DNA of 64,000 bases from an uncultured Lachnospiraceae bacterium (lineage in GTDB: Bacteria; Bacillota; Clostridia; Lachnospirales; Lachnospiraceae). Location: assembly GCA_947626795.1 (NCBI GenBank), contig CANQTH010000001.1:37554-101553 (forward strand), in the 5' to 3' direction. Position numbers and translations under genes: made by a program. Shown one piece after another: positions 2,986 to 35,829 of the stretch (the stretch's first letter is position 1; each line of letters starts with the position of its first letter). The notes beneath the pieces were generated by a model. The model was not told the origin of the DNA, did not search any database, and worked only from the letters and a program-made list of their open reading frames with translations.

Positions 2986-3059
2986 CGATGCGTGGCTCAG
3001 CTTGGTAGAGCGCTGCGTTCGGGACGCAGAGGTCGCAGGTTCAAATCCTGTCGCATCGA
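2986..3059 (+). tRNA. tRNA-Pro(CGG)
   Basis: Acceptor CGATGCG/CGCATCG, anticodon arm CTGCG-TTCGGGA-CGCAG, T-loop GGTTCAAATCC. Confidence 0.95.
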
Positions 3060-3389: not shown

Positions 3390-3701
3390 TGGACACCTCC
3401 GCTGTATTTTGATGTGGTTTGCCAGACCTACATTCATTATACAGCGAAGGTTTTTATTTCGGTACTCTGCTCACCGCCTCCGGCATCTGGTTAGTCTCCC
3501 CAGCTCCGCCGGGGGATTTATACTGTTTCATTAAAAACAGGGGAGCCAATTCCAGTGGATATGCCAAATGAAAGCAGGTATGTTTAGGGAACGTTTAAAA
3601 GATGATTCTATTTGGAAGTACAAAAAATAGAATGCAGGAAACCTTTTGGATTTAAAGTCTCCTGCATTCTCTGCACTTTAAAGATGTAACACAAATACTG
3701 C

Positions 3702-4571
3702 TTAATTTTCTTCCAACATCTTTATTTCATTCAAAGAAAGCCTTGATATGTCGGCAATCTCATCTAACGTATATCTGCCGGATTTTAGCATTCGGATCGC
3801 AGTTATTTTTTGCTCTTGTTGCATACCTTGCTGTATGCCTTCTTCTATTTTGGATTTGTCTCTTAAAATTAACCGTGGCTCCATAAGTTCCATCAATGAT
3901 TCATACATGCTCTCATCCTCCATCATTTTCCTGATAAGCTGTTTGTTTGCGTCTATACTGACTTTTAGGACAGAATCTGCCATCTCCTTGTCAAATTCTC
4001 CTTTCAGTCCGCTTACCCGTTTCAATAACTGTTTTACATCTTCTTTTTGAAGTTTTTCGGAAAGGGATTTTAACCAGACATGTCCATCTCCCTCTAATTC
4101 CTTTGTAACAATAATTTGCAAAGGAAACAGGCTGCCCGTATGGATGCGGTATATCCCTTTGCGGGAACAGGTTGTTTCAAATCCTTTTTCAGAAAGATAT
4201 TTAAAAAGCCTCTCCGGTTTCCCTTCCCTGATGATCGTTGTTGTAATATCATCTTCATTTATCCCGGCAGATGCAGTTCCAGCAGTCTTATAGATACAGG
4301 CATATCCTTGTACTTTATAAAATGTGTTGATGTTCAGTTCGTCTCCGGGAGATTTGTATTCTATGATATTATGCCCCCGGAAAAACAGCCCTATTTCGTT
4401 TTTCAGTTCAACAGCTGGATCTTTTTTGATGATCAGCAAATCGGTTTCCAGCGGTTTCGTGTTCAGGTTATACTCTTTTTCAAAAATCAGATCATTTCTG
4501 TTTTCCTTAAATTCCAAGTTCATGGCAGCGACAAATCCCGGATGCCATTGTATTTTCGTATCTTCCATCAA
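3702..4571 (-). CDS. PD-(D/E)xK nuclease, Rpn/YhgA-like, copy 1
   Basis: PLETDLL..NIIEYKS nuclease core; C-terminal EEGIQQG..AIRMLK..LDEIADISRLSLNEI typical of Rpn proteins. Confidence 0.7.
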   Translation of the reverse strand: MMEDTKIQWHPGFVAAMNLEFKENRNDLIFEKEYNLNTKPLETDLLIIKKDPAVELKNEIGLFFRGHNIIEYKSPGDELNINTFYKVQGYACIYKTAGTASAGINEDDITTTIIREGKPERLFKYLSEKGFETTCSRKGIYRIHTGSLFPLQIIVTKELEGDGHVWLKSLSEKLQKEDVKQLLKRVSGLKGEFDKEMADSVLKVSIDANKQLIRKMMEDESMYESLMELMEPRLILRDKSKIEEGIQQGMQQEQKITAIRMLKSGRYTLDEIADISRLSLNEIKMLEEN

Positions 4572-4898
4572 GCAACTCCTTTTCTTAATTGGATTATATC
4601 ATATTTTGAGGATTTTACAACATAGCCGGCACGCCCGTTTTCAATAAAAATTCTACAAAAGTTCTACAAAATAAATTTTTGAAAAAATCAGCGAAATTGT
4701 GGGATGGAAAAATCCAATCCGGGAAACCCTTGAAAATAAAAGCTTTCAAAGCTGTCAGATGAATTTTGAAAATACGGTATTGTTTGGGGGATGTCAGCAG
4801 GGTTATTGTATTTGAACGCAAAAAAAGAATGCAGGAAACCTTTTGGATTTAAAGTCTCCTGCATTCTCTGCACTTTAAAGATGTAACACAAATACTGC

Positions 4899-5768
4899 TT
4901 AATTTTCTTCCAACATCTTTATTTCATTCAAAGAAAGCCTTGATATGTCGGCAATCTCATCTAACGTATATCTGCCGGATTTTAGCATTCGGATCGCAGT
5001 TATTTTTTGCTCTTGTTGCATACCTTGCTGTATGCCTTCTTCTATTTTGGATTTGTCTCTTAAAATTAACCGTGGCTCCATAAGTTCCATCAATGATTCA
5101 TACATGCTCTCATCCTCCATCATTTTCCTGATAAGCTGTTTGTTTGCGTCTATACTGACTTTTAGGACAGAATCTGCCATCTCCTTGTCAAATTCTCCTT
5201 TCAGTCCGCTTACCCGTTTCAATAACTGTTTTACATCTTCTTTTTGAAGTTTTTCGGAAAGGGATTTTAACCAGACATGTCCATCTCCCTCTAATTCCTT
5301 TGTAACAATAATTTGCAAAGGAAACAGGCTGCCCGTATGGATGCGGTATATCCCTTTGCGGGAACAGGTTGTTTCAAATCCTTTTTCAGAAAGATATTTA
5401 AAAAGCCTCTCCGGTTTCCCTTCCCTGATGATCGTTGTTGTAATATCATCTTCATTTATCCCGGCAGATGCAGTTCCAGCAGTCTTATAGATACAGGCAT
5501 ATCCTTGTACTTTATAAAATGTGTTGATGTTCAGTTCGTCTCCGGGAGATTTGTATTCTATGATATTATGCCCCCGGAAAAACAGCCCTATTTCGTTTTT
5601 CAGTTCAACAGCTGGATCTTTTTTGATGATCAGCAAATCGGTTTCCAGCGGTTTCGTGTTCAGGTTATACTCTTTTTCAAAAATCAGATCATTTCTGTTT
5701 TCCTTAAATTCCAAGTTCATGGCAGCGACAAATCCCGGATGCCATTGTATTTTCGTATCTTCCATCAA
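4899..5768 (-). CDS. PD-(D/E)xK nuclease, Rpn/YhgA-like, copy 2
   Basis: Protein identical to 3702..4571. Confidence 0.7.
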   Translation of the reverse strand: MMEDTKIQWHPGFVAAMNLEFKENRNDLIFEKEYNLNTKPLETDLLIIKKDPAVELKNEIGLFFRGHNIIEYKSPGDELNINTFYKVQGYACIYKTAGTASAGINEDDITTTIIREGKPERLFKYLSEKGFETTCSRKGIYRIHTGSLFPLQIIVTKELEGDGHVWLKSLSEKLQKEDVKQLLKRVSGLKGEFDKEMADSVLKVSIDANKQLIRKMMEDESMYESLMELMEPRLILRDKSKIEEGIQQGMQQEQKITAIRMLKSGRYTLDEIADISRLSLNEIKMLEEN

Positions 5769-5960
5769 GCAACTCCTTTTCTTAATTGGATTATATCATA
5801 TTTTGAGGATTTTACAACATAGCCGGCACGCCCGTTTTCAATACGCCAGATTTTAAAGGGCGGTGGAATTTACTTTTTCACTGGAATTTCGGATTGCAAG
5901 TCAGCCCCGTTTTCAATAAAAATTCAAATCCCTGTCGCATCGATTCTTGGCAGGGGCGCT

Positions 5961-11302: not shown

Positions 11303-11331
11303 TTTACTATTTTCTTATAGTGTGCTATAGT
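11303..11331 (+). promoter_or_regulatory. Putative sigma-A promoter for the YEKP-leader gene
   Basis: TTTACT-17 nt-TATAGT with extended TG. Confidence 0.5.
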
Positions 11332-11376: not shown

Positions 11377-11826
11377 ATGCGTAATTATGAAAAACCAATG
11401 GTCATGGTAAGTGACGGGTTGAGCGAAGGCATCTATGCGGCGAGCGGCGCCACAGAATCCGCGGACTGCTGGACAGTCGAGCCGGTATCCGTCCAAGACT
11501 GGAATGGCTCCCATCATGTATTCGAGATTCGTTGCAAGCATTCTACAGCAGTAGAGCACATTTCTTCCGGGACAACAGTAACGCTTACATTTAACAATGC
11601 TTTAACGGATGCTTATTCTGAATTTGCCTGCTCATTCAGCGGCAGCACGGTCACAGTCACCCGCGAGCTGCACGCGAACGCTTATAAGTCTGGCGATACC
11701 ATGACTTACAAGGTATGGGTAAAGGCTGCCGACGAAGCGACGACGAAGGCGATTTCCTGCATTGGCGCGACCATTTCCTGCACGAAATCCATCAACGTCC
11801 AGGGCGGCGGGGCGAACGGCTCCTGA
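11377..11826 (+). CDS. 149-aa protein with a lasso-like YxxP leader and a beta-rich, Cys-containing domain; putative RRE/ABC substrate
   Basis: MRNYEKPMVMVSDGLSEGIYAASG followed by Thr/Ser/Val-rich strands; AAAGGGGG RBS; no hydrophobic Sec signal; directly upstream of an ABC exporter. Confidence 0.75.
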   Translation: MRNYEKPMVMVSDGLSEGIYAASGATESADCWTVEPVSVQDWNGSHHVFEIRCKHSTAVEHISSGTTVTLTFNNALTDAYSEFACSFSGSTVTVTRELHANAYKSGDTMTYKVWVKAADEATTKAISCIGATISCTKSINVQGGGANGS

Positions 11827-11859
11827 CGCAGATCAGATGCGGATCCATGTATTGGGGAA

Positions 11860-11890
11860 GGCAGCGCTTGTTTCAAGCGCTGCCATTTTC
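11860..11890 (+). terminator. Hairpin terminator/attenuator between the putative cargo gene and the ABC transporter
   Basis: Perfect 10-bp stem GGCAGCGCTT-GTTTC-AAGCGCTGCC followed by ATTTTC. Confidence 0.6.
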
Positions 11891-12037
11891 ATCGGATGAG
11901 GGAAGATTCCCGCCTCTCTATCTGTCCGTATCCGCGGCGTGAGTTTTCCCCCATCTGATCAACCCTCCGTGAAGGCGGGCCTTGAACGGATCCGTCCCTT
12001 CCATGGCGCATACGCATAAGAGAAAGGATCCTACCCC

Positions 12038-13993
12038 ATGAGAGAAAAGCTCAAGTTCTATTTCGGGCGCATCAAAGCCGGACGCCTTGCCGAAATGAAG
12101 CGGCAGACGCTCTGGATCTACCAATACGCCAGGCGCTACTGGCTCATCATGATCTTCTACACCCTTTTGGGCATGGTCGGGACGGCCGTCTCGCTGCTCT
12201 CCAGCCTGGTTTCCAAGGATCTCGTGGACATCATCACCGGACATGAGGCGGGGGAAGTCGTCAAGACGTTCGCCATCATGATCGGCTTAAATGTCGGGAC
12301 GACGTTCTTAAACCAGATCTCCGATTACGCTTCCAGCTACCTGAGCCTGAAAGTGGATTCTGAGATCAAGGCCGACATTTTCTCGAAGATCCTGGTGACG
12401 GACTGGGAATCCCTGACGACTTACCACACGGGCGACCTTCTGACGCGCTGGAGTTCCGACGCCTCCGCCATCTCGAACGGCGTCCTGAACTTCATCCCCA
12501 ACGCCGTCATTTATTTGTTCCGCTTCATCAGCGCGTTTTCCATGGTCATCTATTACGACGCCTCGTTCGCCATATTCGCTTTCCTTGGGATGCCCGTGAG
12601 CCTGCTGCTCTCCAAGACGCTCTTGAACCGCATGGTGAACAACAACCAGCGCAGCGCGGCGATGGGGGCGAAAATGTCCGGCTTTAACCAGGAGACGTTT
12701 TCCAACATCCAGACCATCAAGGCGTTCGACTTGATCCATCTGTACGTCGCGCGGCTCAAGCAGCTCCAGAAGGAATACATCGATATGAAGCTGGATTTCC
12801 AGAAAATGTCGATGGGGACGTCGCTGCTCTTATCGACCGTCGCGCTCCTCGTCTCCTACGCCTCCTACGGCTGGGGCATTTACCGCGTATTCAGCAACGC
12901 CATCAGCTACGGCACGATGACGATGTTCCTAAGCCTCTCCGGGACGCTGACCGGGACGCTGCACAATTTGACGTCCCTCATCCCGACGACGATCTCTCTT
13001 ACGACCTCCGCCGGGCGTCTGATGGACATCATCGAGATGCCGCGCGAGGATTACAGCCAGGATGATGAGGCCGAGCGCTTCTTCCAGGCCAACCGGGCGC
13101 AGGGCATCAGCCTTTCCGTCAAGGGCCTGGATTACTCTTACAGCAACGGGACGGAAGTCTTCCGGGGCGCGTCTTTGGAAGCGCGCCCGCATGAGGTCGT
13201 CGCGCTCGTCGGCCCGTCCGGCGAGGGCAAGACCACAATGATCCGCCTGATCTTATCGCTGATGCGCGCCCAGGGCGGAACCGCCATGCTCTACGGCGGC
13301 GCGGCGGCAGATCCCTCATCCGGAAACGGCGGCGCGGCAGCAGACCCACCATCCGGGGACGGCGGCGCGGCGGCAGATCCCTCATCCGGGGACGACGGCG
13401 CGGCGGCAGACCCGCCATCCGGGGACGGCGGCGCGGCGGCAGACCCGCCATCCGGGAATGGCGGCAGCCCTTCCGCAAGCGGCGGCTCTTCTGCGGATGA
13501 CGGCATCCCCCTGACGCCTTCCACGCGGAAGCTCTTTTCCTATGTGCCGCAGGGCAACACAATGTTCTCCGGCACGATCGCGGAAAATATGCGGAACGTC
13601 AAACCGGACGCCACCGACGAGGAGATCGTGGACGTCTTAAAACTCTCCTGCGCCTGGGATTTCGTGAACAGGCTGCCGGATGGCATCAACAGCGAGATCA
13701 AAGAACGCGGCGGCGGCTTCTCCGAGGGGCAGGCCCAGCGGCTTTCCATCGCGAGGGCCCTGCTGCGACGCTCGCCTATCCTTCTTTTGGATGAGGCGAC
13801 TTCCGCCCTGGACGTCGCGACCGAGCGCAGCGTTCTGCGGAACATCATGTCGGATGAATATCCGAGAACGTGCATCGTGACGACGCACCGCCCGTCCGTG
13901 CTGAATATCTGCAAACGGGTCTATGCCATCCGCGACAAGAAATGCGTCGTCCTCAACGAGGACGAGATCGACGAGATGGTGCGTGGGTTCTGA
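12038..13993 (+). CDS. ABC exporter (TMD+NBD fusion, no C39 peptidase domain)
   Basis: TM helices, Walker A GPSGEGKTT, signature FSEGQAQR, Walker B LLLDEATSALD. Confidence 0.93.
   Translation: MREKLKFYFGRIKAGRLAEMKRQTLWIYQYARRYWLIMIFYTLLGMVGTAVSLLSSLVSKDLVDIITGHEAGEVVKTFAIMIGLNVGTTFLNQISDYASSYLSLKVDSEIKADIFSKILVTDWESLTTYHTGDLLTRWSSDASAISNGVLNFIPNAVIYLFRFISAFSMVIYYDASFAIFAFLGMPVSLLLSKTLLNRMVNNNQRSAAMGAKMSGFNQETFSNIQTIKAFDLIHLYVARLKQLQKEYIDMKLDFQKMSMGTSLLLSTVALLVSYASYGWGIYRVFSNAISYGTMTMFLSLSGTLTGTLHNLTSLIPTTISLTTSAGRLMDIIEMPREDYSQDDEAERFFQANRAQGISLSVKGLDYSYSNGTEVFRGASLEARPHEVVALVGPSGEGKTTMIRLILSLMRAQGGTAMLYGGAAADPSSGNGGAAADPPSGDGGAAADPSSGDDGAAADPPSGDGGAAADPPSGNGGSPSASGGSSADDGIPLTPSTRKLFSYVPQGNTMFSGTIAENMRNVKPDATDEEIVDVLKLSCAWDFVNRLPDGINSEIKERGGGFSEGQAQRLSIARALLRRSPILLLDEATSALDVATERSVLRNIMSDEYPRTCIVTTHRPSVLNICKRVYAIRDKKCVVLNEDEIDEMVRGF
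13295..13462 (+). repeat. Five in-frame 33-bp repeats (GGAAADP[S/P]SG[N/D]) inside the ABC NBD
   Basis: Visible in DNA and protein between Walker A and YVPQ. Confidence 0.9.
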
Positions 13994-14175: not shown

Positions 14176-15390
14176 TCAGGAAAACAGCTTCATCCTGCCG
14201 ATCAGCCTGCTGCGCTTCCCGGCTTTCTTTAAGATCTCCCGCCCCTTTACCTTGCGGACGGCGCGGTTGTTATGGAGGAAGCGCGCAAGCGTCGCTGCCC
14301 AGAGCGCGGGCCACAGCAGAAACACCTTCCCGGCGGACGGGTAATTCAGGTGCATCTGATGGTGGAACTCCCGCACATAGGCGTTAAGCCCCGTCCCGCG
14401 CATCGCCACCATCCGCTGGCTCTCGTCATGCCCGAACTCCCCCGCCGCAAAGACTTCTTCCATAAAATCCTCCAAAACCTTCGCGGAAACCGATTGCCCG
14501 CCCGACCGGAACACGGCCCGGTCCTCCCGAAGCCCCAGATATCTTACGCACGCGCCGTCCAATATGCGGACGAAGCCTTCCGTCCCGCTCTCTTTCACGA
14601 GACGCAAAAACACTTCTTTTTCTTCCGGCCGCACCTCGCGGTCCCAAAAAACGACCCAGTCGCACAAAAATTTCAGCCCGAATCCCGCGCGCAGGAAATG
14701 CTGCAGCATATGGACGATCAGGTAGAACGCGTGATAAGCGTCCGAGGGTTGGTAAAACGGAACGCCCCACGCCTCGTTCAAGACCATGTGATCTCCATAT
14801 TCCGGGGCCAGTTCTTCCAGATATTGATTCATCTTCCGGCTCTCAAACGGCTCCGCCAGCATACTGTGGATCTCCACGGAAATGCCTTCTTCATTTACCA
14901 TCTCCAAATGGTGCAGCGCCGTCTGGCCCTCCAGCTCCTTGAACCCGTCCTCCTTTAAGATATTCGCGGCGCGCAGGAACTCCCCTCTGTCCGGGATCAG
15001 GATATCCACGTCCCCGGACTTGCGCAGCTCCGGCGTCGGATAATAAGACGCGGTAGCCGCGCCTTTCAGCACGATCGCGCGGATCCCGTTCTTCTCCAAT
15101 TCCCGCGTGACATATTTTGTCAAAAAAAGCAGCCGATAGTTCGAGCGCACGACGACTTTCGCCGGATTTCGGACCGCCGCCTCCCAGCTTTCCGGATCCT
15201 CTTGCCCGCCCAGGGCGGCGAGCAGCGGCAAGACCGCGTGCCGCCTGGCAATCTCCGCCATCTTAAAAAAAAGAGGCCCATCCTTTTCTATGTCAGCTTT
15301 TCGCCCTTCCCGGCGCAGCGCAGCCGCCAGCCCTTCCAGCAGCATCTTTTCCGCCCCGCCCATTTTTGCCGTCTGTTTTTTCTCCTGCAT
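14176..15390 (-). CDS. Nucleotidyltransferase family protein (NTP_transf_5-like)
   Basis: VLKGAATASYYPTPELRKSGDVDILI, VEIH, HMLQHF..GFGLKFLCDW. Confidence 0.85.
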   Translation of the reverse strand: MQEKKQTAKMGGAEKMLLEGLAAALRREGRKADIEKDGPLFFKMAEIARRHAVLPLLAALGGQEDPESWEAAVRNPAKVVVRSNYRLLFLTKYVTRELEKNGIRAIVLKGAATASYYPTPELRKSGDVDILIPDRGEFLRAANILKEDGFKELEGQTALHHLEMVNEEGISVEIHSMLAEPFESRKMNQYLEELAPEYGDHMVLNEAWGVPFYQPSDAYHAFYLIVHMLQHFLRAGFGLKFLCDWVVFWDREVRPEEKEVFLRLVKESGTEGFVRILDGACVRYLGLREDRAVFRSGGQSVSAKVLEDFMEEVFAAGEFGHDESQRMVAMRGTGLNAYVREFHHQMHLNYPSAGKVFLLWPALWAATLARFLHNNRAVRKVKGREILKKAGKRSRLIGRMKLFS

Positions 15391-15468
15391 AGCTCCCTCC
15401 ACTGGCGCGCCGCCTTCCCGCTTCCCGCAAGCCTCTCATCTGTGATCGTTCAACTTAGATTCCCTCTT

Positions 15469-15555: not shown

Positions 15556-17112
15556 TCATCTTTTCCTTGCCCTGCCGCGGAATTTCTCCCACAAGCCGCG
15601 CGCTTTCTGGCGCAGGAAGCGAAATTCCTTCGTCCGCCCGTAAACGACCAAAAACCAGAGGTTGGGCAGGACGATGCAGACCGCGAGCCGCCCCGCAAGC
15701 TCCTGCCACAGCCCTAAGCCGCGCGCCGCCAGCGCGGCGCACAGGGCGTCGGCCGCGCGCCATCCAACGCCAATGACCGCCGCGTACGCGAGATAGCGCA
15801 GGAAATAGCTGGCGCAGGGCTTGTGGAAACCGTATTTGTACAGCACGTACGGCTCAACCCACAAAGAGGTGAGCGCCATGCTCAAAAGCGTCCCCAGGAA
15901 CACGCCCAGCGTCCCCATCCAATGCGCCAGCAAAAGCGAGATCCCCAGGTTCGCAAGCGCCTCCGCGATCGCCTTGTGCCTGTCATACCAGAACAGTCCC
16001 ATGGAATCCCGGAACGTCAGCGCGGCGTTGCGCATCCCGTTGAGGAAAAAATTCAGGCACAGCACAAACACGACGGTTTTCGGGAAAACGTACTGCTCCC
16101 CGAAGCTGATCGCTATGAATGGATTGAGAATCTCGTACAGGCAGATCGCCGCAAACCCGTACATCCACTGGCCGATGAAAAACACGGCCTCGAACACTTC
16201 CCGGACATGCCCCTCGCCCTCCGTCGCGCCCAGGTTCCCGACGCTGGCCGTGATCCCCTGGTAGACCTGGTTCAGCATCTGTCTTACAGACCCGATCACC
16301 AGATAATAATTGGAATAGCTCCCGACGCTGGCAAGCCCCACGAACGCCGACAGCAGCAGGTTGTCCGTGTTGTTGACGATCACCGTCCCCACCTTATGCA
16401 TCAGCATGGCCCGGATATTGGCAAAGATCTCCTTTTTCTCCTTCTCCGGGAGCGGCGCGGGGCTTTTTTCCTTCAGAAACGGATAAAGGCTGTCCGCCCG
16501 AAGCGAGATGCAGACGTTGCACAAAACCGTCGTCGCGATGTTGATCAGCAAGAACAGGATAAAGTCATGCCAGACCAGCAGGACTATCATCTGCAGGACG
16601 TCCTGCAGAACCCAGGACATCGTCTGGTAAAACGTGCCGATATATAAAAGCTGGTTCGCGTCCATCAGCGTTTTCTTGTAGATCAGAAGATACGAGCAGA
16701 CGGTATTGGCAAGGTAGAGCGCATAGATCAAAGTCAGGTTCCCGACGTTCTCATAATCCTTGATGAAATATCCCAAAAACGGGATCAGCGCGCCGCCCGC
16801 CACTGCCACGACCGCCGCCGCCGCAAAATAGAATTTCCGGAAGAGCTGCATGAGCGACCTCTGCTTTTCTGTGTCGCCCTGCGCGATCGGGCGGTAAAGC
16901 GCGTAGGTGATCGCCGTCCCGACCCCCATCTCGGACAGGGACAGCACCTGGATGATATCGACGAACAGCCCGTTCACCCCGACGTAGCTCTTGCTCAACG
17001 TATGCGTGAACACGACCCGCAGCGCATACCCCATCACGATCGCCGTCAGACGGGAGATCAGCGCCACTGTCGTATTCCGCGCAGAATATTCCGTCCTGGT
17101 CTTCCTTTCCAT
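15556..17112 (-). CDS. Wzx/MATE-like polysaccharide flippase
   Basis: Polytopic; LSLSEMGVGTAITYALYRPIA, NNTDNLLLSAFVG, SNYYLVI. Confidence 0.88.
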   Translation of the reverse strand: MERKTRTEYSARNTTVALISRLTAIVMGYALRVVFTHTLSKSYVGVNGLFVDIIQVLSLSEMGVGTAITYALYRPIAQGDTEKQRSLMQLFRKFYFAAAAVVAVAGGALIPFLGYFIKDYENVGNLTLIYALYLANTVCSYLLIYKKTLMDANQLLYIGTFYQTMSWVLQDVLQMIVLLVWHDFILFLLINIATTVLCNVCISLRADSLYPFLKEKSPAPLPEKEKKEIFANIRAMLMHKVGTVIVNNTDNLLLSAFVGLASVGSYSNYYLVIGSVRQMLNQVYQGITASVGNLGATEGEGHVREVFEAVFFIGQWMYGFAAICLYEILNPFIAISFGEQYVFPKTVVFVLCLNFFLNGMRNAALTFRDSMGLFWYDRHKAIAEALANLGISLLLAHWMGTLGVFLGTLLSMALTSLWVEPYVLYKYGFHKPCASYFLRYLAYAAVIGVGWRAADALCAALAARGLGLWQELAGRLAVCIVLPNLWFLVVYGRTKEFRFLRQKARGLWEKFRGRARKR

Positions 17113-17137
17113 CCGAATCGCCCTCCCTATATCCGTC

Positions 17138-17349
17138 CTCATTTCTCAAACGAGGATTTTTCCGGCAGCGCGCTTGCTGCCCGCCTCCCCCATTTCCCGA
17201 ACAGGGATTTCCCGGCGGCGCACCCTCTCTCATTTCTCAAACGAGGATTTCCCGGCAGCGCGCCTTACGCCTCTCTCCCCTTCCCGAACAGGGATTTCCC
17301 GGCGGCGCACCCTCTCTCATTTCTCAAACGAGGATTTTTCCGGCAGCGC
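17138..17349. repeat. Three copies (period about 87-91 bp) of the Stealth gene 3' end
   Basis: CTCATTTCTCAAACGAGGATTT..CCGGCAGCGC at 17138, 17229 and 17316; the last contains the real stop. Confidence 0.85.
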
Positions 17350-18363
17350 CTGTTCCAGCGCCTCCATGACCTGCCGCTTCGCGCGCGCAAAATCGATCGG
17401 CTCGTTGGCGTCGTTGACGCAGACGATCTTCGCCTTGCGCCTCGCGATCGTTTTCATCAGCGCGGGGTTGTCGCTCTTCACGTCAAAATAACGGAATCCC
17501 CGCAGGACATTTTTTGCACGGAAATTCCCGGATAATTTCTGCCACTCCCGCGCGAGGTACTGGCTCACATCCCCTTTATCCCGGAAACGGTGGCGGCACG
17601 TACTATCCAAAAGCTCCGCCTCCTTCTCCCAAAGCTCCCGGTACGTCCCCTTCAAGAACGGGGCCGCCCCGTGCGCCGTGAAAAACCCGGTATAACGCGG
17701 GAACACCATCTCCAGCAGATTATAAAAAAAGTAGAGTGGGGGATAGCCGACCTTAAAATAATTGCCCGGCTGGCGTTTCACGTTCTCCCGCTTGGAAAAA
17801 TGCTTCGACAGCGCAAGCGCGTTGTTCATATAGATGTAGGTCATGACCGGGTTCTCCGGGTTCGCGACGACGGGCTGGAACGCCAGCATATCGCAGGGCT
17901 TCCCGCCGATGAAAAAATCTTCTTTTTTCAGCTCATCGATCAGGAGCATATCGTCGTTAAAGTAGACGAACTGCTCTGAAAGGCCCTCGATCCGGTGCAT
18001 ATTCCACTCGATCGTATGGGAATTGAACGTGGGCAGGTATTCCGGCGGGATGTAGTCCTCGTGGCGCACGATATGCAGCTTCGGATGGGAAACGTCCAGC
18101 CAATCCGGCAGATGCCCCCAGGTGATGAAATGGATCTTCCGCACCCAGGGCGCGTATTTTTCCACGCCCCGAAACCAATACTGCAGGATGCCCCAGTCGC
18201 GGTAACGCTCGTCGGCGTCGTCGGTCCCGTCCCAGCCGCCTCCCGCTTCTTTGCCTCCTTCGCGTCCGAACTCCCGCTCGCGGCACGCCCTCTTTTCCCG
18301 CCGCCAGTTCTCGTCGCCGCCATCCACCCAGGTAATGACGAAATCAATTTCCTCTTCCCGCAT
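17317..18363 (-). CDS. Stealth-family phosphoglycosyl transferase
   Basis: IDFVITWVDG (CR1), LPTFNSHTIE..GLSEQFVYFNDD (CR2), CRHRFR, CVND. Confidence 0.93.
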   Translation of the reverse strand: MREEEIDFVITWVDGGDENWRREKRACREREFGREGGKEAGGGWDGTDDADERYRDWGILQYWFRGVEKYAPWVRKIHFITWGHLPDWLDVSHPKLHIVRHEDYIPPEYLPTFNSHTIEWNMHRIEGLSEQFVYFNDDMLLIDELKKEDFFIGGKPCDMLAFQPVVANPENPVMTYIYMNNALALSKHFSKRENVKRQPGNYFKVGYPPLYFFYNLLEMVFPRYTGFFTAHGAAPFLKGTYRELWEKEAELLDSTCRHRFRDKGDVSQYLAREWQKLSGNFRAKNVLRGFRYFDVKSDNPALMKTIARRKAKIVCVNDANEPIDFARAKRQVMEALEQALPEKSSFEK

Positions 18364-18496
18364 ATTTCCATTCCTCCCGCAAATATGTTATACTGGCCTT
18401 AGACATACGCAAATTCAAGACTCGCGCGCGATCCGGGCCTGCTTTTGCAGACATCTTCCGATCCGGATCTTTGCGCATCCTCACGGAGGTTCCCTT

Positions 18497-19933
18497 ATGA
18501 AAAAGAAACGTCTCCTTATCATCCCATGCGCCCTGCTCCTGGCGGCCTTAGCCGCCGCGGGGATCGCCGCGCGCCAATTTTACTTAGAACGATATTATGT
18601 CGTCTCCTGCCAGAGCGCGCCGTATGAAGACACGGCCAGGCTTCTGTCCAACCCGTACTGCGGCTGGTACCGCATTTACGGCTACGCGCTCTCGGACTCC
18701 GCACCGCCGGACATGGAGGCCATGCAAAAAAATATCGCCTCGGACGACAACGAGCTGGTTCTTTTGGAACTCAACCTGCGGAATTACGCTGCTTCCGACA
18801 TCAGCCCGACAGGGCTTGCCCAATTGGAATCCATCCTGTCCGCCTGGGAGGCGTCCGGCAAGCAGCTCATCCTGCGCTTCCTGTATGACTGGGACGGCAA
18901 GGCCAGGGAAACCGAACCGGACGACATCTCCGTCATCAAGCGCCACATGGAACAGGCCGCAAAGGCCGTCAACCGCCATAAAAGCTGCGTCTACCTGCTG
19001 CAGGGCATCTTTGTGGGCAATTGCGGGGAAATGAACAATTCCAATTATATGGCCGCAGAGCAGATGCGCGAGCTTGCCGCATATCTGGACTCCGTTATCG
19101 ACAAGTCGATCTTCCTGTCCGTGCGCACCCCGGCGCATTACCGCGCCATCAGCCAGTCCTTCGACCCTTTGCCCGCCGAGAAAGCATTTTCCGGCGCGAT
19201 CGAGGCAAGAACCGGGCTGTTCAACGACGGGATGCTCGGCTCCGCCAGCGACCTGGGCACCTACGGGGAGACGCCCCTCGCCGAAGCGGCGGACTTTAAC
19301 GGAAAAGGTACGCGCGCGGAAGAGATCGCGTTCCAAAACGCCCTCTGCCAGTATGTGCCGAACGGCGGCGAGGCCGTCCTGGACAACGAATACAACGATT
19401 TCCCCAACGCCGTCGCCGACCTGCGCGAAATGCACGTCTCCTACTTAGACTGCGGCTACGACCTCGCCGTGCTGGAAAAATGGCGCGGCAGCTCTTACGG
19501 GGGGGACGGCTGCTTCCACGGCGGGGACGGCTGCTCCTACATCGGCGCGCACCTTGGCTACCGCTATGCCTTCCGCTCCTCTGACTGCAGCTTCGACCCG
19601 TTCCGCGACGGGACCGCCGCCTTTTCTCTCACCATCGAAAACAGCGGCTTCGCGAACAGCTACCGCCCCTTCTCCTCCGTCGTGACCGTGCTGCGCGAAG
19701 ACGGGAGCGTCTGCGACGCCATCCCCGTCCGCTCCGACGCGCGCCTTTGGAAGAGCGGGGAATCCGTCACGCTCCAAGTCCCGCTCGACGTCTGCGCCTA
19801 TAAGGAAGGGACTTACCGCATTTACTATCGGCTGTCCGACCCGGCCTTGGACGGCCGCACCATCCTGTTCGCCAACACGCTGTCCTTATCCGAATACGGC
19901 TATCCAATCGCCACGCTGACCGTCGAGAAGTAA
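18497..19933 (+). CDS. DUF4874/DUF4832-type putative glycoside hydrolase with N-terminal signal/anchor
   Basis: NPYCGWY, LRFLYDWDG, GIFVGNCGEMN, GLFNDG, PNGGE, HLGYR; hydrophobic N-terminus. Confidence 0.7.
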   Translation: MKKKRLLIIPCALLLAALAAAGIAARQFYLERYYVVSCQSAPYEDTARLLSNPYCGWYRIYGYALSDSAPPDMEAMQKNIASDDNELVLLELNLRNYAASDISPTGLAQLESILSAWEASGKQLILRFLYDWDGKARETEPDDISVIKRHMEQAAKAVNRHKSCVYLLQGIFVGNCGEMNNSNYMAAEQMRELAAYLDSVIDKSIFLSVRTPAHYRAISQSFDPLPAEKAFSGAIEARTGLFNDGMLGSASDLGTYGETPLAEAADFNGKGTRAEEIAFQNALCQYVPNGGEAVLDNEYNDFPNAVADLREMHVSYLDCGYDLAVLEKWRGSSYGGDGCFHGGDGCSYIGAHLGYRYAFRSSDCSFDPFRDGTAAFSLTIENSGFANSYRPFSSVVTVLREDGSVCDAIPVRSDARLWKSGESVTLQVPLDVCAYKEGTYRIYYRLSDPALDGRTILFANTLSLSEYGYPIATLTVEK

Positions 19934-20005
19934 AACGGACGATCCTGGAACTTTCCGGCGGCGTGACACGGATATCCAATCGCCACACTGACTGTCGAGA
20001 AGTAA
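19901..20005. repeat. 33-bp 3' end of the DUF4832 gene duplicated 72 bp downstream
   Basis: TATCCAATCGCCAC(G/A)CTGAC(C/T)GTCGAGAAGTAA at 19901 and 19973. Confidence 0.85.
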
Positions 20006-20021
20006 TGCGGCGTTCCTTCCC

Positions 20022-21305
20022 TTACTTCATAAACGTCCCCAGGCAGACGCTTCCGTCCGCACCAGACGGATTCGCAAACAAAATTGTCCGCCCGTCACGC
20101 TTTCTGCGCATGGAAAGCGACAGGACGCGCGCGTTTTCTTCCAATTCCTTGTCCAGCGCCACGGACATCTCCCTTTTTTCCTGCGGCCGCACGCCGCGCA
20201 GGCGTTCCGGCAAAACGACCGTTTCCGCCCTGCCGCCCGCCGTCTTGACCGAAAGCGCAAGCTCCGCTTCCTCATACAGCGGCGCGAATCCCGTATTCTC
20301 GATCCAGATCCGCAGGGCCCTGTCTTTTTTCCCGAACAGCTCCGCCCCACGCACAACAAGGCGGTACCCTAAGTGGCAGCCGATATAGTGGAGCGCGCTG
20401 CACCCGTCCCACGGGCCGTCCCCTTCCCAGGTTTCCGCCTCCCATTCCTTCAGGCGCGCGGCGTCATGCGTCCGGTTCAGGTATGTGGCGCGCGCAAGCC
20501 GCAGCTCCCTTGCCGCCTCTTTCCCATCAATCGAAAGCCCGCTCACGGCCTCTCCGCCATAAGGGACGCGCGCGGACGCCCGCCCGATGAACGCCAGCTC
20601 CTCCTGCCTGTCCCAACGGCCCAGCCACCCGGCTTCCTTTGCCTCCTGGCTGCCGAATGTCCCCAGATCGTCGGCGGAGCCGAACATCCCGTCATTGAAC
20701 AGGCCGATCCTGCCGTCGCCCGTCCCTTCGCCCGCCGGATGCAGCATCCACCACTGCTGCGGCGTGCGCACCGCCGCCGGGATATCCCCAAAGGCTTCCC
20801 GCCACGCCTGCATCAACTGCCGCAGACGCTCCTCTGATAAGAACTTCGAGCCGTGCATTTCCCCCCAGTTCCCGACAAACAGGCCCTGCGCCACCGCGAT
20901 CTGCCTGCGGAACTTCACAGCGGACGCGCCGACCTGCCGGATATGGCCCAGCACGGTCTTTAAAAATTCCGGCTCGCGCTCCATCCCGCGTCCCTCGCGG
21001 TCATAAACGACGCGCAGGATGACGTCTTTCCCATGCGCCTGGAAAAACCCCAGGATCTCCTCGAAGCGCAGCAGCGCGTCCTGCGGGATCTTGGAATCGC
21101 GGAACGCGCCGATGTCCGCCAGCACGAGCGCCAGCGATTCTTCCTCGCGAAGGCTCCAGCGCAGCTCTTCCAGATCCGTCTCTTCCCCTAAGCCAAACGG
21201 ATAGATCCGGTACCATCCGCAGGCGGGATTCGTTAAATATGCCGTGCTCTCCTCAAACAGCGCAGGCGCGAAGCGGGCCTGCCTCTTTTTCTTAATAAAG
21301 CTCAT
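20022..21305 (-). CDS. Second DUF4832-type paralogue, no signal peptide
   Basis: NPACGWY, LRVVYD, GLFVGNWGEMH, GLFNDG, PYGGE, HLGYR. Confidence 0.7.
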   Translation of the reverse strand: MSFIKKKRQARFAPALFEESTAYLTNPACGWYRIYPFGLGEETDLEELRWSLREEESLALVLADIGAFRDSKIPQDALLRFEEILGFFQAHGKDVILRVVYDREGRGMEREPEFLKTVLGHIRQVGASAVKFRRQIAVAQGLFVGNWGEMHGSKFLSEERLRQLMQAWREAFGDIPAAVRTPQQWWMLHPAGEGTGDGRIGLFNDGMFGSADDLGTFGSQEAKEAGWLGRWDRQEELAFIGRASARVPYGGEAVSGLSIDGKEAARELRLARATYLNRTHDAARLKEWEAETWEGDGPWDGCSALHYIGCHLGYRLVVRGAELFGKKDRALRIWIENTGFAPLYEEAELALSVKTAGGRAETVVLPERLRGVRPQEKREMSVALDKELEENARVLSLSMRRKRDGRTILFANPSGADGSVCLGTFMK

Positions 21306-23452: not shown

Positions 23453-23833
23453 CTACCCTTTTCCCTCTTCGACGGACTCTTCTTCCTTTAATTTCTGCAA
23501 AAGGATCTCGTTTTCCTGGTTCAAAAGCGATACGTGCATCGCAAGCTCCTGGTTCTTGCGGAGAAGCTGCGAGACGGCGCAGCTTAGGTAAAAAAAGCAG
23601 ATCAGGATCGAGAGGCTGATCAGAAGGAACGCCGGGACGGCCTCCCCCGGCACGATCCTCGTCCAGTCCGACAGCCCGGGCACCGCCCCCAGCAAAATAA
23701 ATACGATGGAGAACGCGCCCCAGCAGAGCATGAACCCGACTGTGATCTTCTGATAGACAAACGACAGGAAGTCAAGGATAAGGAGCGCGATCCCCTCGAT
23801 CACCGTCACCACGCATAAAAATACCGACGTCAT
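23453..23833 (-). CDS. DUF2304-like small membrane protein
   Basis: Three TM segments followed by LLRKNQELAMHVSLL. Confidence 0.7.
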   Translation of the reverse strand: MTSVFLCVVTVIEGIALLILDFLSFVYQKITVGFMLCWGAFSIVFILLGAVPGLSDWTRIVPGEAVPAFLLISLSILICFFYLSCAVSQLLRKNQELAMHVSLLNQENEILLQKLKEEESVEEGKG

Positions 23834-25305
23834 TCCGCTTTCACCACCCCTTCTTTTTTCCTGTCCCGACGCGCGTCATATACCTTGGAGGGGAGCGCGG
23901 CCCCCTTTCCATAGTCGATCAGCGTCCCCCGGCAGAAGATATGCTCGTCTAAATGCCGCTCCACCCATCGGAGCCGGAAATAGGCGACGCCCCAGCCCAC
24001 GAGCGATCCCGCCGCGACGCCGATCCCGTACCATTTCTCGGAAAGTCCCGCGGCGTAAACGCTCACGGCGAACGTGACCAGCACGAAAGCGATCGCCGCC
24101 GCCAGCGCGCCCGCCAGGTCATTGTAGTAATATAAAAATATGATGGCGGAATACATTAAGAACAAAATAAAGTATCCTGCCGCGAGGCACGGGTAGATCT
24201 GCATCACCAGCCCGGAAAACCCGTATTGGGGCAGCATGACGACGCAGATCAGGAACACGCTGATGGAGATGATGAACTGGATGCGCGCGAGCGCCATAAG
24301 CTCCGAAGCGAGCTGGCGGAACATCCGGTTCTGCGCGTTGCGGATATCCACGCCCCGTCCGCCGATCACGGCTTCCGAATATCCTTTGTATTTGTCGCGG
24401 AAATGCATTTCCAGCCTTGAGATCAAAATGACCGTCGCGGAAATGTTCGTGAACATCGCGAGGCAGCTCGCCATGTCGTAGGCGGGCGCGCAGACGAAGC
24501 TCTCCGCCACCGTCATCTTGATGTCCGTCGCCCAGAATACGAAATTGTGGATGTAAAGCCCCGCCGTATAGAGCGTGTTGATGATGACGAGCGGCCACAG
24601 CTTGCGGAAATAGCGCAGCACGGGACGGTACCTCCCGCTGTTTTTCTTAAAATACCGCTTGATCATGGCGATCTCCTGGCAGGCGATCAGCAAGAACCCC
24701 GCCACGATGGACACCAGCATCGAATTTGTCACCGGGAAGGAAAACACGCGCACCAATACCAGAGACATCAGCAGGGACGCCGCCATCCCCACGAAGAAGA
24801 AGATCGTGATCTTCTTGTAATCCTTGCAGATCTGAATATACAAGATCGAGTAGAACACCAGCACGCAGGCGATATACCCGCAGAATCCTGTAAACACGTA
24901 CAGGATGCCGATCTTCCCGACGACCGCCTCATGGATGCAGAACGGGATCCCGGTCAGGCAGCCTAAGAAGACGCTCATGGCAAGCCCCACGTAAAAGCAG
25001 GGGATGATATCCTCATACTTCTCCTCAAAGATCACGTCCGACATATAGCGGGAAAGCAGCGCGTTAAACGGCGCTGTCGTAAGCAGGGAGAAAACAAACA
25101 TATATAAGATCGTGCAGGAAAATAACTCCCGCGGCGCGTAAGGCTCCTTGGAAAGCCCAAGCGCCTCCCCCATCACGACAATATTCCCTATGACCAGAAA
25201 CATCGGCGCGACGGTGACGACCGCGCTGTACCCGAACCCGATCAGGTCGGACACCAGCGTATTTTTCTCAAAAATGCGGTTCAGCTTTACTCCTATCCCT
25301 GCCAT
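23830..25305 (-). CDS. pelG: Pel exopolysaccharide transporter PelG
   Basis: MAGIG..L start, SRYMSD, IHNFVFW, PAYDMASCLA; follows pelF. Confidence 0.88.
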   Translation of the reverse strand: MAGIGVKLNRIFEKNTLVSDLIGFGYSAVVTVAPMFLVIGNIVVMGEALGLSKEPYAPRELFSCTILYMFVFSLLTTAPFNALLSRYMSDVIFEEKYEDIIPCFYVGLAMSVFLGCLTGIPFCIHEAVVGKIGILYVFTGFCGYIACVLVFYSILYIQICKDYKKITIFFFVGMAASLLMSLVLVRVFSFPVTNSMLVSIVAGFLLIACQEIAMIKRYFKKNSGRYRPVLRYFRKLWPLVIINTLYTAGLYIHNFVFWATDIKMTVAESFVCAPAYDMASCLAMFTNISATVILISRLEMHFRDKYKGYSEAVIGGRGVDIRNAQNRMFRQLASELMALARIQFIISISVFLICVVMLPQYGFSGLVMQIYPCLAAGYFILFLMYSAIIFLYYYNDLAGALAAAIAFVLVTFAVSVYAAGLSEKWYGIGVAAGSLVGWGVAYFRLRWVERHLDEHIFCRGTLIDYGKGAALPSKVYDARRDRKKEGVVKAE

Positions 25306-25338
25306 AGCGGCAACCATGCCTCCTCTCTACCGAAAACC

Positions 25339-27018: not shown

Positions 27019-27075
27019 TCGCCTCTGCCCCTAACTTTGCCCGCCGCTTCCCGCAGGCAGTCTTCCTTCCATGCC

Positions 27076-28935: not shown

Positions 28936-28956
28936 AGAAAAACCTCCGCTGTAAGA

Positions 28957-31692: not shown

Positions 31693-31714
31693 CACCTCCT
31701 TTTTCTCCGTATCT

Positions 31715-35789: not shown

Positions 35790-35829
35790 CCGCATCCCCT
35801 CGTTACCAAAACCCATGCCCCGCAGCCGC

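Follow-up and report, generated by a model that had tools for sequence, protein, structure and literature searches.

The linear polyphosphorylated peptides (LPPs) are a RiPP family of Bacilli that was described in 2026 (Popov et al., Nat Commun 2026, PMC13381572). LPP systems comprise five core genes and are set in capsule loci; they have been reported from Bacilli only, with one short-peptide precursor characterised experimentally (PMC13381572). In the Paenibacillus system, a SipW-like peptidase removes the leader in an RRE-dependent manner and an HprK-like kinase polyphosphorylates Ser3 of the core; Y-16 and P-13 of the leader bind the recognition element LppB, and the precursor LppA is cleaved in the pattern FET/xxS, the slash marking the cut (PMC13381572). 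The Pfam family NTP_transf_5 and the model TIGR02203 are also recorded in LPP clusters (PMC13381572).

The window analysed here, a stretch of 64,000 nucleotides from an uncultured Lachnospiraceae bacterium, holds the same core set: a precursor, a PqqD element, a SipW-like (TIGR02228-type) peptidase, an NTP_transf_5 protein and an MsbA-like exporter. The HprK-like (TIGR04249-type) kinase of LPP systems is present in loci related to the window but absent from its 64 kb, and both the LPP and the Lachnospiraceae systems lie in polysaccharide loci. We consider it likely that the locus is a new Lachnospiraceae variant of the LPP systems with protein-sized, CBM2-like cores. The precursor gene and its flanking signals are:

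11303-11331, forward strand: promoter-like −35/−10 hexamers, TTTACT-17-TATAGT with a TG extension, from a consensus scan (pattern match alone)
11377-11826, forward strand: precursor gene, LPP-type leader plus CBM2-like beta-sandwich, 149 aa, from the ORF and its translation
11386-11406, forward strand: YxxPxV(L) motif, Y4-E-K-P7-M-V-M10, expected to bind the recognition element
11425-11448, forward strand: block E17-G-I-Y-A-A-S23-G24, with candidate phospho-Ser23 and a probable cut at about I19/Y20, by analogy with LppA
11449-11466, forward strand: variable linker ATESAD
11467-11802, forward strand: beta-sandwich domain, C31 to Q142, from AlphaFold, Foldseek and conservation
11860-11894, forward strand: intrinsic-terminator-like hairpin with a T-rich tail, between the precursor and exporter genes

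The ORF runs from an ATG at 11377 to a stop codon at 11824-11826, with an AAGGGGG ribosome-binding site (a consensus match only) on its 5' side, and the protein begins MRNYEKPMVMVSDGLSEGIYAASG. Its 24-residue N-terminus, which we term the leader, has no hydrophobic core: no Sec-type h-region was found within residues 1-30, where the best 10-residue Kyte-Doolittle mean is 0.89, and the highest 19-residue mean over the whole precursor is 0.81. Hydropathy thus confirms the view of the first-pass annotation that the leader is not a Sec signal. The same annotation had read the N-terminus as a lasso-style (YxxP) leader separate from the cargo domain, and conservation bears this out: over 129 representatives (clustering at 50% identity), the mean consensus frequency of the leader is 0.71, twice the 0.35 of the domain, and that of the linker is 0.19. 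Among these divergent relatives, the YxxP residues are nearly fixed (Y4 in 98%, P7 in 100%), as is the second block (E17 in 100%, G18 in 91%, Y20 in 92%, S23 in 96% and G24 in 95%), and of 154 cargoes, spanning every class, 99% have a Ser at the same anchored position. Residues 1-28 are disordered in the AlphaFold model.

The leader recurs well beyond this gene. A degenerate DNA pattern for it matched once in the window against 0.00 expected from 100 shuffles; a stricter pattern, with the Lys codon fixed, occurred in at least 119 stretches of species-representative genomes, and among the matches listed 112 were real N-terminal leaders on an ORF and 3 were obvious chance matches. At least four unrelated protein families of these genomes begin with the leader, among them a large beta-sandwich superfamily, two Cys-rich families (one of ~120 aa, the other small) and CBM_2 (28.1 bits vs the Pfam cut-off of 24). 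The genome-wide pattern scan therefore upholds the earlier expectation that one leader serves unrelated C-terminal domains: the 146 cargoes that carry it fall into 12 clusters by sequence, and a true CBM_2 is among them. The small Cys-rich class surfaced in a profile search with 48-aa N-termini; run against a set of 5.8 billion proteins, such a profile returned 22 short proteins, mostly fragments. The leader strings do not occur in the literature searched, where "ScmC" gave unrelated acronyms only. A donor-strand or other structural role of the N-terminus was ruled out because this predicted disordered segment also heads unrelated folds.

The leaders of the two groups can be compared residue by residue. 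Both start with MKxYxxPxVL and carry a near-invariant Ser after a conserved block, on precursors of 35-200 aa with variable C-termini. A Tyr-anchored alignment shows Y1, P4, V6 and L7 to be common to LPP and Lachnospiraceae leaders (the window protein carries Met where the leader families have L7), and it places the near-invariant Ser at position 19 in LPP vs position 20 in Lachnospiraceae leaders. The second halves differ: E14 G15 V16 Y17 A18 A19 S20 stands against F14 E15 T16 x x S19 of LPP, that is, NEELAEGVYAASG against the LPP consensus HQxIxFETxxS (full motif YxxPxVLxHQxIxFETxxS), so that cleavage and modification sites are not confidently transferable from one group to the other. Further differences concern the host (Bacilli for LPP, Lachnospiraceae here), the kinase, which in Lachnospiraceae relatives is fused to a recognition element of its own, the terminator of the precursor directly 5' of the exporter gene, which is a Lachnospiraceae feature, and the lasso cluster, of which there is none near the window system, unlike LPP. 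The cores differ as well: those of the precursors in the LPP supplement are short and of low complexity, whereas those here are folded and 90-160 residues long, CBM2 included. The match of the leader tag suggests that an LPP-type system of gut Lachnospiraceae handles whole folded proteins beside short peptides.

C-terminal of the leader, the precursor is rich in Thr (13.6%), Ser (12.0%), Ala (11.2%) and Val (8.8%), and the protein has five Cys residues (31, 53, 85, 128 and 135), a composition in keeping with the Thr/Ser/Val-rich, five-Cys protein described at first pass. It belongs to the cargo family that we call class A (C-terminal motif NVQG), in which identity between genera is 65-90%. There are 256 close homologues, each of 146-150 aa, and relatives of the precursor form 291 clusters at 50% identity. 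Neither Pfam nor NCBIfam assigns a family to cargo classes A to E, the window protein included. Sequence searches of the PDB with profiles of the cargo, the leader and the peptidase gave no significant match, and an Rfam scan around the precursor gene gave no riboswitch or other RNA family. An RTX-like reading of the C-terminal GGGADGN tail was dropped on inspection because the tail does not fit GGxGxD.

CBM2 modules bind carbohydrates through exposed aromatic residues, and CBM2a modules have a disulfide between Cys residues near the ends of the domain. In the AlphaFold model of the window protein, the beta-sandwich spans residues 32-139 (block mean pLDDT 72-95); C31/C135, H55, H61 and F72 are conserved, as are Trp 32, 42 and 114 in close homologues. 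All four Foldseek matches in the PDB at E < 1e-3 are CBM2 modules (6qfs, 3ndy_E among them), followed by 2rtt, 1exg and 2cwr, with TM-scores that are low (0.37-0.63). The domain thus resembles CBM2 modules, its best matches being those of Cex, EngD and chitinases, in its beta-sandwich of ~105 residues and in a conserved Cys near either end, like the CBM2a disulfide. It differs from CBM2 (PF00553) and stands alone, with no attached enzyme: Pfam CBM_2 gave no match to the window protein at E up to 0.1, whereas a sibling cargo class with the identical leader type is a genuine Pfam CBM_2. With CBM2 modules at the top of the structural search and a true CBM_2 among the siblings, the CBM2-like fold proposed earlier is supported, albeit by a weak similarity. 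The most plausible ligand of the mature product is a glycan of the cell surface or matrix, and a putative matrix or adhesin role of the cargo is plausible. The conserved context lends no support to the further suggestion that this glycan is Pel: only 2 of ~116 related loci have Pel genes beside the system, which rules out Pel association as a conserved feature.

The partner genes of the window lie partly beside the precursor and partly 24 kb away:

12038-13993, forward strand: ABCB-type half-transporter exporter (LppD-like), no C39, by Pfam ABC_membrane plus ABC_tran
14176-15402, reverse strand: NTP_transf_5 (PF14907) protein, LppN/PsmN-like, Pfam E 1.6e-35
15556-17142, reverse strand: Wzx-like flippase-type membrane protein, accessory glycan module, by a weak NCBIfam WZX_like match
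17317-18363, reverse strand: Stealth-family hexose-1-phosphate transferase, accessory glycan module, by Pfam Stealth CR1-CR4
18494-19933, forward strand: DUF4874/DUF4832 protein, accessory, by Pfam; recurs in related loci
20022-21305, reverse strand: second DUF4874/DUF4832 copy, by Pfam
35538-35816, reverse strand: stand-alone PqqD-type RiPP recognition element (LppB-like), Pfam PqqD E 3.9e-15
35901-36347, reverse strand: soluble SipW/Sec11-type leader peptidase (LppS-like), family HMM 191 bits

The recognition element and the peptidase, whose genes are 84 nt apart, are reached past a Pel-like operon. In BLASTP, the PqqD protein matches LPP recognition elements to E 6e-6 vs 0.29 for the paeninodin-type lasso B1, and it matches the N-terminal domain of the HMM of the RRE-kinase family, in which the RRE domain has the lasso and LPP recognition elements TbiB1, PbaB1 and LppB as its best solved relatives. 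The peptidase scores below cut-off against both TIGR02228 (E 3.3e-7) and Peptidase_S24 (E 3.7e-4); its family is homologous to the LPP cluster-1 peptidases (hhalign 98.9%, E 1.3e-17), and by BLASTP the window enzyme is closer to the unstudied clusters 4 and 20 of the LPP paper than to cluster 1. Ser27, His66 and Asp81 are invariant in the family, and the Ser27/His66 spacing of 39 residues equals that of S29/H68 in LppS. Its model (pLDDT 84) has SipA, LexA, UmuD and SpsB as top Foldseek matches, which is the signal-peptidase/LexA fold, and hydropathy reveals no membrane segment. An HprK-like kinase was not found in the 64-kb window, where an HMM from 48 RRE-kinase fusions detects only the PqqD protein and tblastn is negative; the kinase may be encoded elsewhere in the source genome.

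Among NCBIfam models the exporter is best matched by TIGR02204 and TIGR02203, both for MsbA, and it is 63% identical to its orthologue at the related locus L001. It gives no match to Peptidase_C39, and its transmembrane domain begins at residue 38. Its nearest solved relatives are generic ABCB transporters and so do not help to identify the substrate. For an ABCB-type exporter, a folded domain of ~115 residues would be unusual cargo. The DUF4874/DUF4832 neighbour begins with a classical signal peptide, MKKKRLLIIPCALLLAALAAAG.

The arrangement recurs in related loci, where cargo genes are often found within polysaccharide loci. Among 112 related 8-kb blocks, 73 contain the orthologous ABC exporter, 53 an RRE-HprK-like fusion, 34 an NTP_transf_5 gene, 33 an S26-like peptidase and 24 a Wzx-like homologue; the Stealth gene also recurs beside related systems. 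The recognition element is often fused to an HprK-like P-loop domain, and its presence in these loci substantiates the expected co-occurrence of the leader with lasso-B1-like recognition elements. The order of cargo, hairpin and exporter, pointed out at first pass, is kept as well: 24 of the 27 assessable class A loci have an exporter orthologue directly downstream in the same orientation, and a hairpin comparable to that of the window (stem-loop 11860-11884, 11 pairs of which 8 are G-C, 3-nt loop, ΔG ~ −24.6 kcal/mol) occupies the same place in ~20 of 24 loci, with ΔG of −16 to −27 kcal/mol.

These observations bear on a simpler account, in which the precursor is an ordinary cytoplasmic protein whose N-terminus is part of the fold or an interaction tag, and the exporter is unrelated to it. 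Such an account would agree with the missing Sec signal, with the absence of the kinase from the 64-kb window and with export being itself a prediction. However, the same N-terminus heads unrelated folds; it is a predicted disordered segment, with variable linkers between it and the domain; the exporter gene is strictly syntenic; and a recognition element and a peptidase co-occur. We regard this account as highly improbable. What we likely have instead is a precursor whose leader guides its post-translational processing and its export, within a Lachnospiraceae branch of the LPP-type RiPP systems.

Other known systems share parts of this design. The paeninodin/pseudomycoidin lasso clusters of Bacillota resemble it in a (Y/W)xxP leader bound by PqqD (B1), in an ABC exporter, and in the modification of a Ser, which an HprK-type kinase phosphorylates and an NTP transferase then glycosylates. 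However, neither the Asn-synthetase-like cyclase nor the B2 cysteine protease of lasso clusters was found among the Pfam-scanned genes of the window or the called genes of loci L001-L006; a serine signal-peptidase-like enzyme takes the place of B2, and a folded protein is made rather than a threaded lasso peptide of ~20 residues. The beta-sandwich matrix protein TasA of B. subtilis has a dedicated archaeal/ER-type signal peptidase, SipW, and is encoded near exopolysaccharide genes; the Sec signal of TasA is hydrophobic, and SipW sits in the membrane. The locus likewise pairs a SipW-type peptidase homologue with a beta-sandwich cargo, but combines them with a hydrophilic leader, a peptidase free of membrane segments, a recognition element and predicted ABC export. 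With double-glycine/PCAT systems it shares a hydrophilic N-terminal leader, a dedicated ABCB-type exporter adjoining the cargo gene and, as the layout suggests, a high cargo-to-transporter expression by design; it departs from them in an exporter without C39, another leader motif and a separate, RRE-guided serine peptidase.

We propose the following route. Transcription of the precursor gene would start at a promoter of its own and would mostly stop at the hairpin, whose position is conserved and whose effect on stoichiometry we infer. The YxKPxV(L) motif of the disordered N-terminus would bind the PqqD-type element, by homology with LppB and LppA. In most related genomes such an element also occurs fused to an HprK-like P-loop domain, which would phosphorylate Ser23 in YAASG, the serine common to the cargo classes. 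The recognition element would offer the EG(I/V)YAAS block to the soluble SipW-like serine peptidase; the leader would then be removed, with a cut near I19/Y20 judging by position. Because the peptidase has no membrane segment, processing is probably cytoplasmic. NTP_transf_5, perhaps with Stealth and Wzx-like proteins, might speculatively add a sugar or sugar-phosphate to the phosphoserine. The adjacent downstream ABC exporter would export the product, as strict synteny suggests, and the mature form would be a CBM2-like beta-sandwich of ~125 residues with a short tether. Cleavage, phosphorylation and export in the Lachnospiraceae members are all inferred steps. The first-pass annotation had seen a plausible signal-peptidase-type site after YAASG. 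The enzyme is indeed there, as an LppS homologue that co-occurs with the cargoes; the site is probably not where it was placed, since positional analogy with the characterised LppA precursor makes a cut before Ser23 more likely than one after YAASG, and Ser23 would then remain on the product as a phosphorylation site.

The linker leads to a different proposal for the N-terminus: that it is retained, modified or surface-bound, as an anchor or docking peptide, with the linker as a stalk presenting the beta-sandwich. Some relatives have insertions of 36-80 residues at the linker, Pro/Thr- or Gly/Glu-rich, such as are typical of tethers; the residues common to all cargo classes are confined to the N-terminus; and Stealth, NTP_transf_5 and flippase-like genes adjoin. 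Yet a dedicated LppS-homologous leader peptidase co-occurs with the cargoes, the leader is removed in the characterised LPP system, and a tether is equally compatible with a leader cut off before Ser23 and a Ser23 that is modified afterwards, so that we think retention quite unlikely. Starting from leader removal, it is also conceivable, though doubtful, that Ser23 is polyphosphorylated after cleavage and then sugar-phosphate-linked, through NTP_transf_5, Stealth and Wzx-like genes, to the cell's own capsule or exopolysaccharide, thereby covalently anchoring a repertoire of small CBM-like proteins. If true, such a phosphoglycosyl N-terminal anchor would be a route distinct from sortase, lipoprotein and S-layer-homology anchoring, would explain the variable stalk-like linkers and would give LPP systems a biological role.

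A secreted antagonist, i.e. a bacteriocin- or lectin-like toxin exported by a leader and a dedicated ABC transporter like class II bacteriocins and drawn from an arsenal of cargoes, seems very unlikely to us. Leader, dedicated exporter and the presence of several small, diversified cargoes in one locus and one genome would all suit a toxin, as would the two-component regulators present in some related loci and the distribution of LPP systems, which is patchy, transfer-prone and, according to the authors, typical of conflict systems (PMC13381572). However, the 65-90% identity of class A between genera indicates purifying rather than diversifying selection, no conserved adjacent immunity gene is obvious in related loci, the exporter has no C39 peptidase domain, the setting is that of polysaccharide loci, and a plain CBM_2 makes up one cargo class.

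Cultured carriers include Anaerobutyricum hallii DSM 3353, Coprococcus catus, Blautia acetigignens, Fusicatenibacter faecihominis and Roseburia porci. Taken as an LPP-type system, the locus suggests that LPP has a far larger sister branch in Lachnospiraceae, one that includes the cultured human-gut genera Anaerobutyricum, Coprococcus, Blautia, Roseburia, Lachnospira and Fusicatenibacter and that applies the LPP logic of leader, RRE, peptidase and exporter to whole folded domains, genuine carbohydrate-binding modules included. If this is true, RiPP-style leader recognition would reach into Sec-independent protein secretion or surface display, and LPP function could be tested directly, by glycan binding and by association with the matrix or capsule. 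It would also provide a portable 20-residue export tag for important gut commensals and give annotation to several large families of "hypothetical" proteins.

Comparison of leader-bearing loci shows the leader of the window protein to be modular and to co-occur with a recognition element, a signal-peptidase-like enzyme, an NTP_transf_5 protein and an exporter; the peptidase and recognition element are homologous to the machinery of linear polyphosphorylated peptides (LPPs) and lasso peptides, and the terminator behind the precursor gene is conserved. The genes concerned and their surroundings are as follows.

Features of the window
11303-11331, +: promoter-like hexamers TTTACT-17 nt-TATAGT with TG extension (consensus match only)
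7 nt 5' of the precursor ORF, +: ribosome-binding site AAGGGGG (consensus match only)
11377-11826, +: precursor ORF (ATG 11377, stop 11824-11826), 149 residues, beginning MRNYEKPMVMVSDGLSEGIYAASG
11860-11884, 3' of the precursor: hairpin of 11 pairs (8 G-C) with T-rich tail, dG ~ -24.6 kcal/mol
12038-13993, 3' of the hairpin: ABC exporter (half-transporter)
14176-15402: NTP_transf_5
15556-21305: Wzx-like gene, Stealth gene, two DUF4874/DUF4832 genes
23830-31695: Pel-like exopolysaccharide operon with PelG, PelF (DUF3492 + GT1), a DUF2194 protein and a 912-aa protein without Pfam match
35538-35816: stand-alone PqqD protein, 24 kb from the precursor, past the Pel-like operon
35901-36347: signal-peptidase-like gene, adjoining the PqqD gene
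36731-40223; 45091-46314; 48420-49697: unrelated neighbours (PFL-like glycyl-radical enzyme and radical-SAM activase; HipA-like kinase toxin; AAA_21 (AbiEii-type) ATPase)

The Pel-like operon, whose 912-aa protein has homologues in related loci L001, L083, L099 and L107, splits the LPP-like gene set in two; a family HMM found no HprK-like domain in the whole 64 kb. Directly beside the PqqD gene, the 732-aa product of 33270-35468 starts with an RmlD/epimerase domain, while its ~470 C-terminal residues have no family match; related locus L098 holds its homologue together with PqqD and peptidase genes. The nucleotide-binding domain of the exporter carries an in-frame tandem repeat (13293-13465; 33 bp x 5.2 copies) that encodes GGAAADP(P/S)SG(N/D) units directly past the Walker A region and is absent from the L001 orthologue (588 aa vs. 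651 in the window). Beside a tRNA gene (2986-3059), a perfect 1018-bp direct duplication (3629-4646 and 4826-5843; 1197-bp spacing) may be of recent origin or else an artefact of the assembly; the 289-codon ORF in each copy has no Pfam match.

The first-pass annotation described the precursor accurately: residues 1-30 contain no hydrophobic core (top 10-residue hydropathy mean 0.89), unlike the neighbouring DUF4874/DUF4832 protein with its textbook signal peptide; the part past the leader has five Cys and abundant Thr, Ser, Ala and Val; and the gene lies between promoter-like hexamers and a hairpin that precedes the transporter. The cargo-hairpin-transporter layout it noted recurs: in 24 of 27 assessable loci the exporter is the gene immediately 3' of the class A cargo (a leader-bearing protein of the window protein's own class) and shares its strand, and a strong hairpin with a T-tail, its sequence varying by locus, stands between them in ~20 of 24; this order is therefore a conserved design. 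Among 112 blocks of 8 kb, cut at arbitrary places around the leader-pattern matches listed, 73 hold an orthologue of the window exporter, 53 a ~390-residue protein with an N-terminal PqqD domain and then a P-loop domain weakly matching HprK-related kinase B and ScmC, 34 an NTP_transf_5 protein and 33 a signal-peptidase-like protein of ~150 residues; Wzx-like, Stealth and DUF4874/DUF4832 proteins occur in fewer. One fusion of recognition element and kinase (alignment A4, seventh sequence) has FVSSDGTNW in place of the P-loop FSGxSGxGKST and may be a degenerate, non-catalytic adaptor.

We found 256 close homologues of the window protein (146-150 residues) in Lachnospiraceae, and a full profile search with its family gave 291 clusters at 50% identity. 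Across an alignment of 129 full-length representatives, mean consensus frequency is 0.71 for residues 1-24 and 0.19 for the linker (25-30), against 0.35 for the domain, in favour of the earlier reading of the N-terminus as a leader; P7 and E17 are invariant, and Y4, G18, Y20, S23 and G24 are kept at 91-98%. In some relatives the junction of conserved block and domain is the exact site of insertions of 36-80 residues, Pro/Thr- or Gly/Glu-rich, so the two are separate modules. Near the precursor homologue in the first three homologous loci, a second gene (~120 codons) encodes the same N-terminus, joined to a C-terminal part that is unrelated and rich in Cys.

Species-representative genomes, scanned for the leader with a degenerate DNA pattern, gave at least 119 matching stretches; among the 119 matches listed, 112 open an ORF with a genuine leader and 3 are clearly fortuitous. 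Carriers among these matches are mostly labelled Lachnospiraceae or genera usually placed there, with a few MAGs labelled merely 'bacterium' or 'Bacillota' and a handful labelled Erysipelotrichaceae, Solobacterium, Oscillospiraceae, Intestinibacillus or Bacteroides. Genuine cargo genes in L043, L037, L046, L098 and L099 (MAGs labelled Bacteroides, Solobacterium, Erysipelotrichaceae, Intestinibacillus and Oscillospiraceae), with at least one accessory gene in each block, could reflect horizontal transfer or mis-binning.

The leader heads unrelated cargo families: among the matches listed, 146 cargoes have a core of 40 residues or longer and form 12 sequence clusters, i.e. a large beta-sandwich superfamily to which the window protein belongs, a Cys-rich family (25 members), a small Cys-rich family (5 members), a true Pfam CBM_2 family (28.1 bits vs. 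a cut-off of 24), one pair and seven singletons. The CBM_2 family apart, the cargo classes tested (A to E) match no Pfam or NCBIfam model. A strongly conserved Cys-rich cargo of ~120 aa with the same leader (L001:9553-9906, L003:9335-9703(-), L005:9015-9380(-); motif PKCDSxYMxGVWQAPDYSDW...GCLGCPANT...NRKPSWEKKGYGPDDPVTDWxM) usually adjoins the class A gene; it has no Pfam or NCBIfam model and no copy in the 64-kb window. Tandem leader-bearing genes of different classes, up to three per locus, occur in L024, L031, L054, L078, L106, L111 and others; several genomes have two or three separate leader loci (e.g. MGBC100080, with L034, L048 and L078), some with no exporter within the block. These arrangements suggest that the machinery is trans-acting. 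That the precursor is a cytoplasmic protein and the exporter an unrelated neighbour is highly improbable, being at odds with both leader modularity and exporter synteny.

AlphaFold, with a 28-sequence alignment, predicted a beta-sandwich at residues 32-139 (block mean pLDDT 72-95), and residues 1-28 and 143-149 have pLDDT < 50. The CBM2-type fold first proposed is borne out in part: all four Foldseek PDB matches with E < 1e-3 are CBM2 modules (Cellulomonas fimi Cex binding domain, C. cellulovorans EngD CBM2), with more CBM2 chitin- and cellulose-binding domains lower in the list, but TM-scores for CBM2 matches are modest (0.37-0.49 by query length, at most 0.63 by target length) and the Pfam CBM_2 profile does not match the window protein. 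'CBM2-like' is a fair description of the predicted fold, which does not thereby prove CBM2 family membership. The C-terminus of many class A proteins carries a conserved C-(T/x)-(K/H)-x-x-N-V-Q-G motif and then a GGADGN-type or G(F/Y)D-type tail; a related beta-sandwich class ends in CNHDCGQH.

LPP clusters, described in Bacilli, lie within capsule loci and comprise genes for the SipW-like peptidase LppS, the discrete recognition element LppB, the HprK-like kinase LppK, the MsbA-like exporter LppD and the uncharacterised NTP transferase LppN; their precursors (35-200 residues) are conserved at the N-terminus (YxxPxVLxHQxIxFETxxS) and variable at the C-terminus (Popov et al., Nat Commun 2026, PMC13381572). 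The authors of that study showed that LppS, to which LppB presents the leader on binding its YxxP motif, cleaves after FET, and that LppK places several phosphates on core Ser3; they also suggested a link to biofilm formation (PMC13381572). The models in their supplementary tables (NTP_transf_5, PqqD, TIGR02228, TIGR02203, TIGR04249) are those matched, some weakly, in the present system. Against LPP sequences drawn from that supplement, the Lachnospiraceae peptidase family gave an hhalign probability of 98.9% (E 1.3e-17); the window peptidase is 24-34% identical to the LPP cluster and 35-37% to clusters 4 and 20, which hold the few Lachnospiraceae entries and were left unstudied (PMC13381572). 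The window PqqD protein is closer to LPP recognition elements (E down to 6e-6) than to paeninodin-type lasso B1 (E 0.29). When aligned at the Tyr, the two leaders have Y1, P4, V6 and L7 in common at consensus level, whereas past L7 the LPP leader has F14-E15-T16, x-x-S19 and the present one E14-G15-V16-Y17-A18-A19-S20-G21; the Ser of this block occurs in 99% of 154 cargoes, in all classes. Besides this distinct second half, the present system differs in its folded, CBM-type cores, in the fusion of the kinase to a recognition element of its own (in related loci) and in a much larger family.

The window peptidase has no membrane segment; its family (887 homologues, close ones named 'S24/S26 family peptidase' in some NCBI records) has invariant Ser27 (GYSMYP), His66 (LVLHR) and Asp81 (GDNQ), and its AlphaFold model (mean pLDDT 84) has SipA (a signal-peptidase homologue), LexA, UmuD and SpsB as top structural matches. 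An N-terminus that stays uncleaved and serves as an anchor would agree with the long linkers, but is at odds with a dedicated peptidase, and we consider it unlikely. By analogy with the LPP experiments, cleavage would instead begin with the YxKP part of the leader binding the PqqD protein, which would present the EG(I/V)YAAS block to the peptidase; because this enzyme is soluble, processing would be cytoplasmic. The cut would fall, by position, near I19|Y20, making Ser23 the fourth residue of the product and a candidate phosphorylation site. The classical signal-peptidase rule calls for small residues at -3/-1 and would allow cleavage after S23 or G24 instead; LppS is not bound by it, since it cuts after F-E-T. 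Synteny suggests that the adjacent ABC transporter exports the product. More speculatively, the NTP_transf_5, Stealth and Wzx-like genes might add further glycosyl or sugar-phosphate modification (pseudomycoidin biosynthesis requires an NTP transferase of this kind for hexose addition to phosphoserine), and the mature domain might bind glycan.

The CBM2-like fold, a sibling cargo class that is a true CBM_2 and the polysaccharide surroundings would all suit a putative matrix or adhesin role. The Pel binding once proposed finds no support in the conserved context: PelG/PelF homologues occur in only 2 of ~116 related loci, unlike the NTP_transf_5, Wzx-like and Stealth module, which recurs often. 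A bacteriocin-like arsenal would agree with the leader, exporter and cargo diversity, yet seems quite unlikely, as class A is 65-90% identical across genera and no obvious conserved immunity gene lies beside the cargo.

This kind of system has been known since May 2026 only (PMC13381572). We found no description of the Lachnospiraceae branch in that paper or other searchable literature; the leader strings are absent from searchable papers, and signal peptidases, S26 and S24 go unmentioned in a 2023 review of RiPP leader peptidases. The branch is of considerable interest on two counts: it opens the function of LPP systems to testing, and it suggests that proteins could be exported or displayed independently of Sec in major gut commensals.
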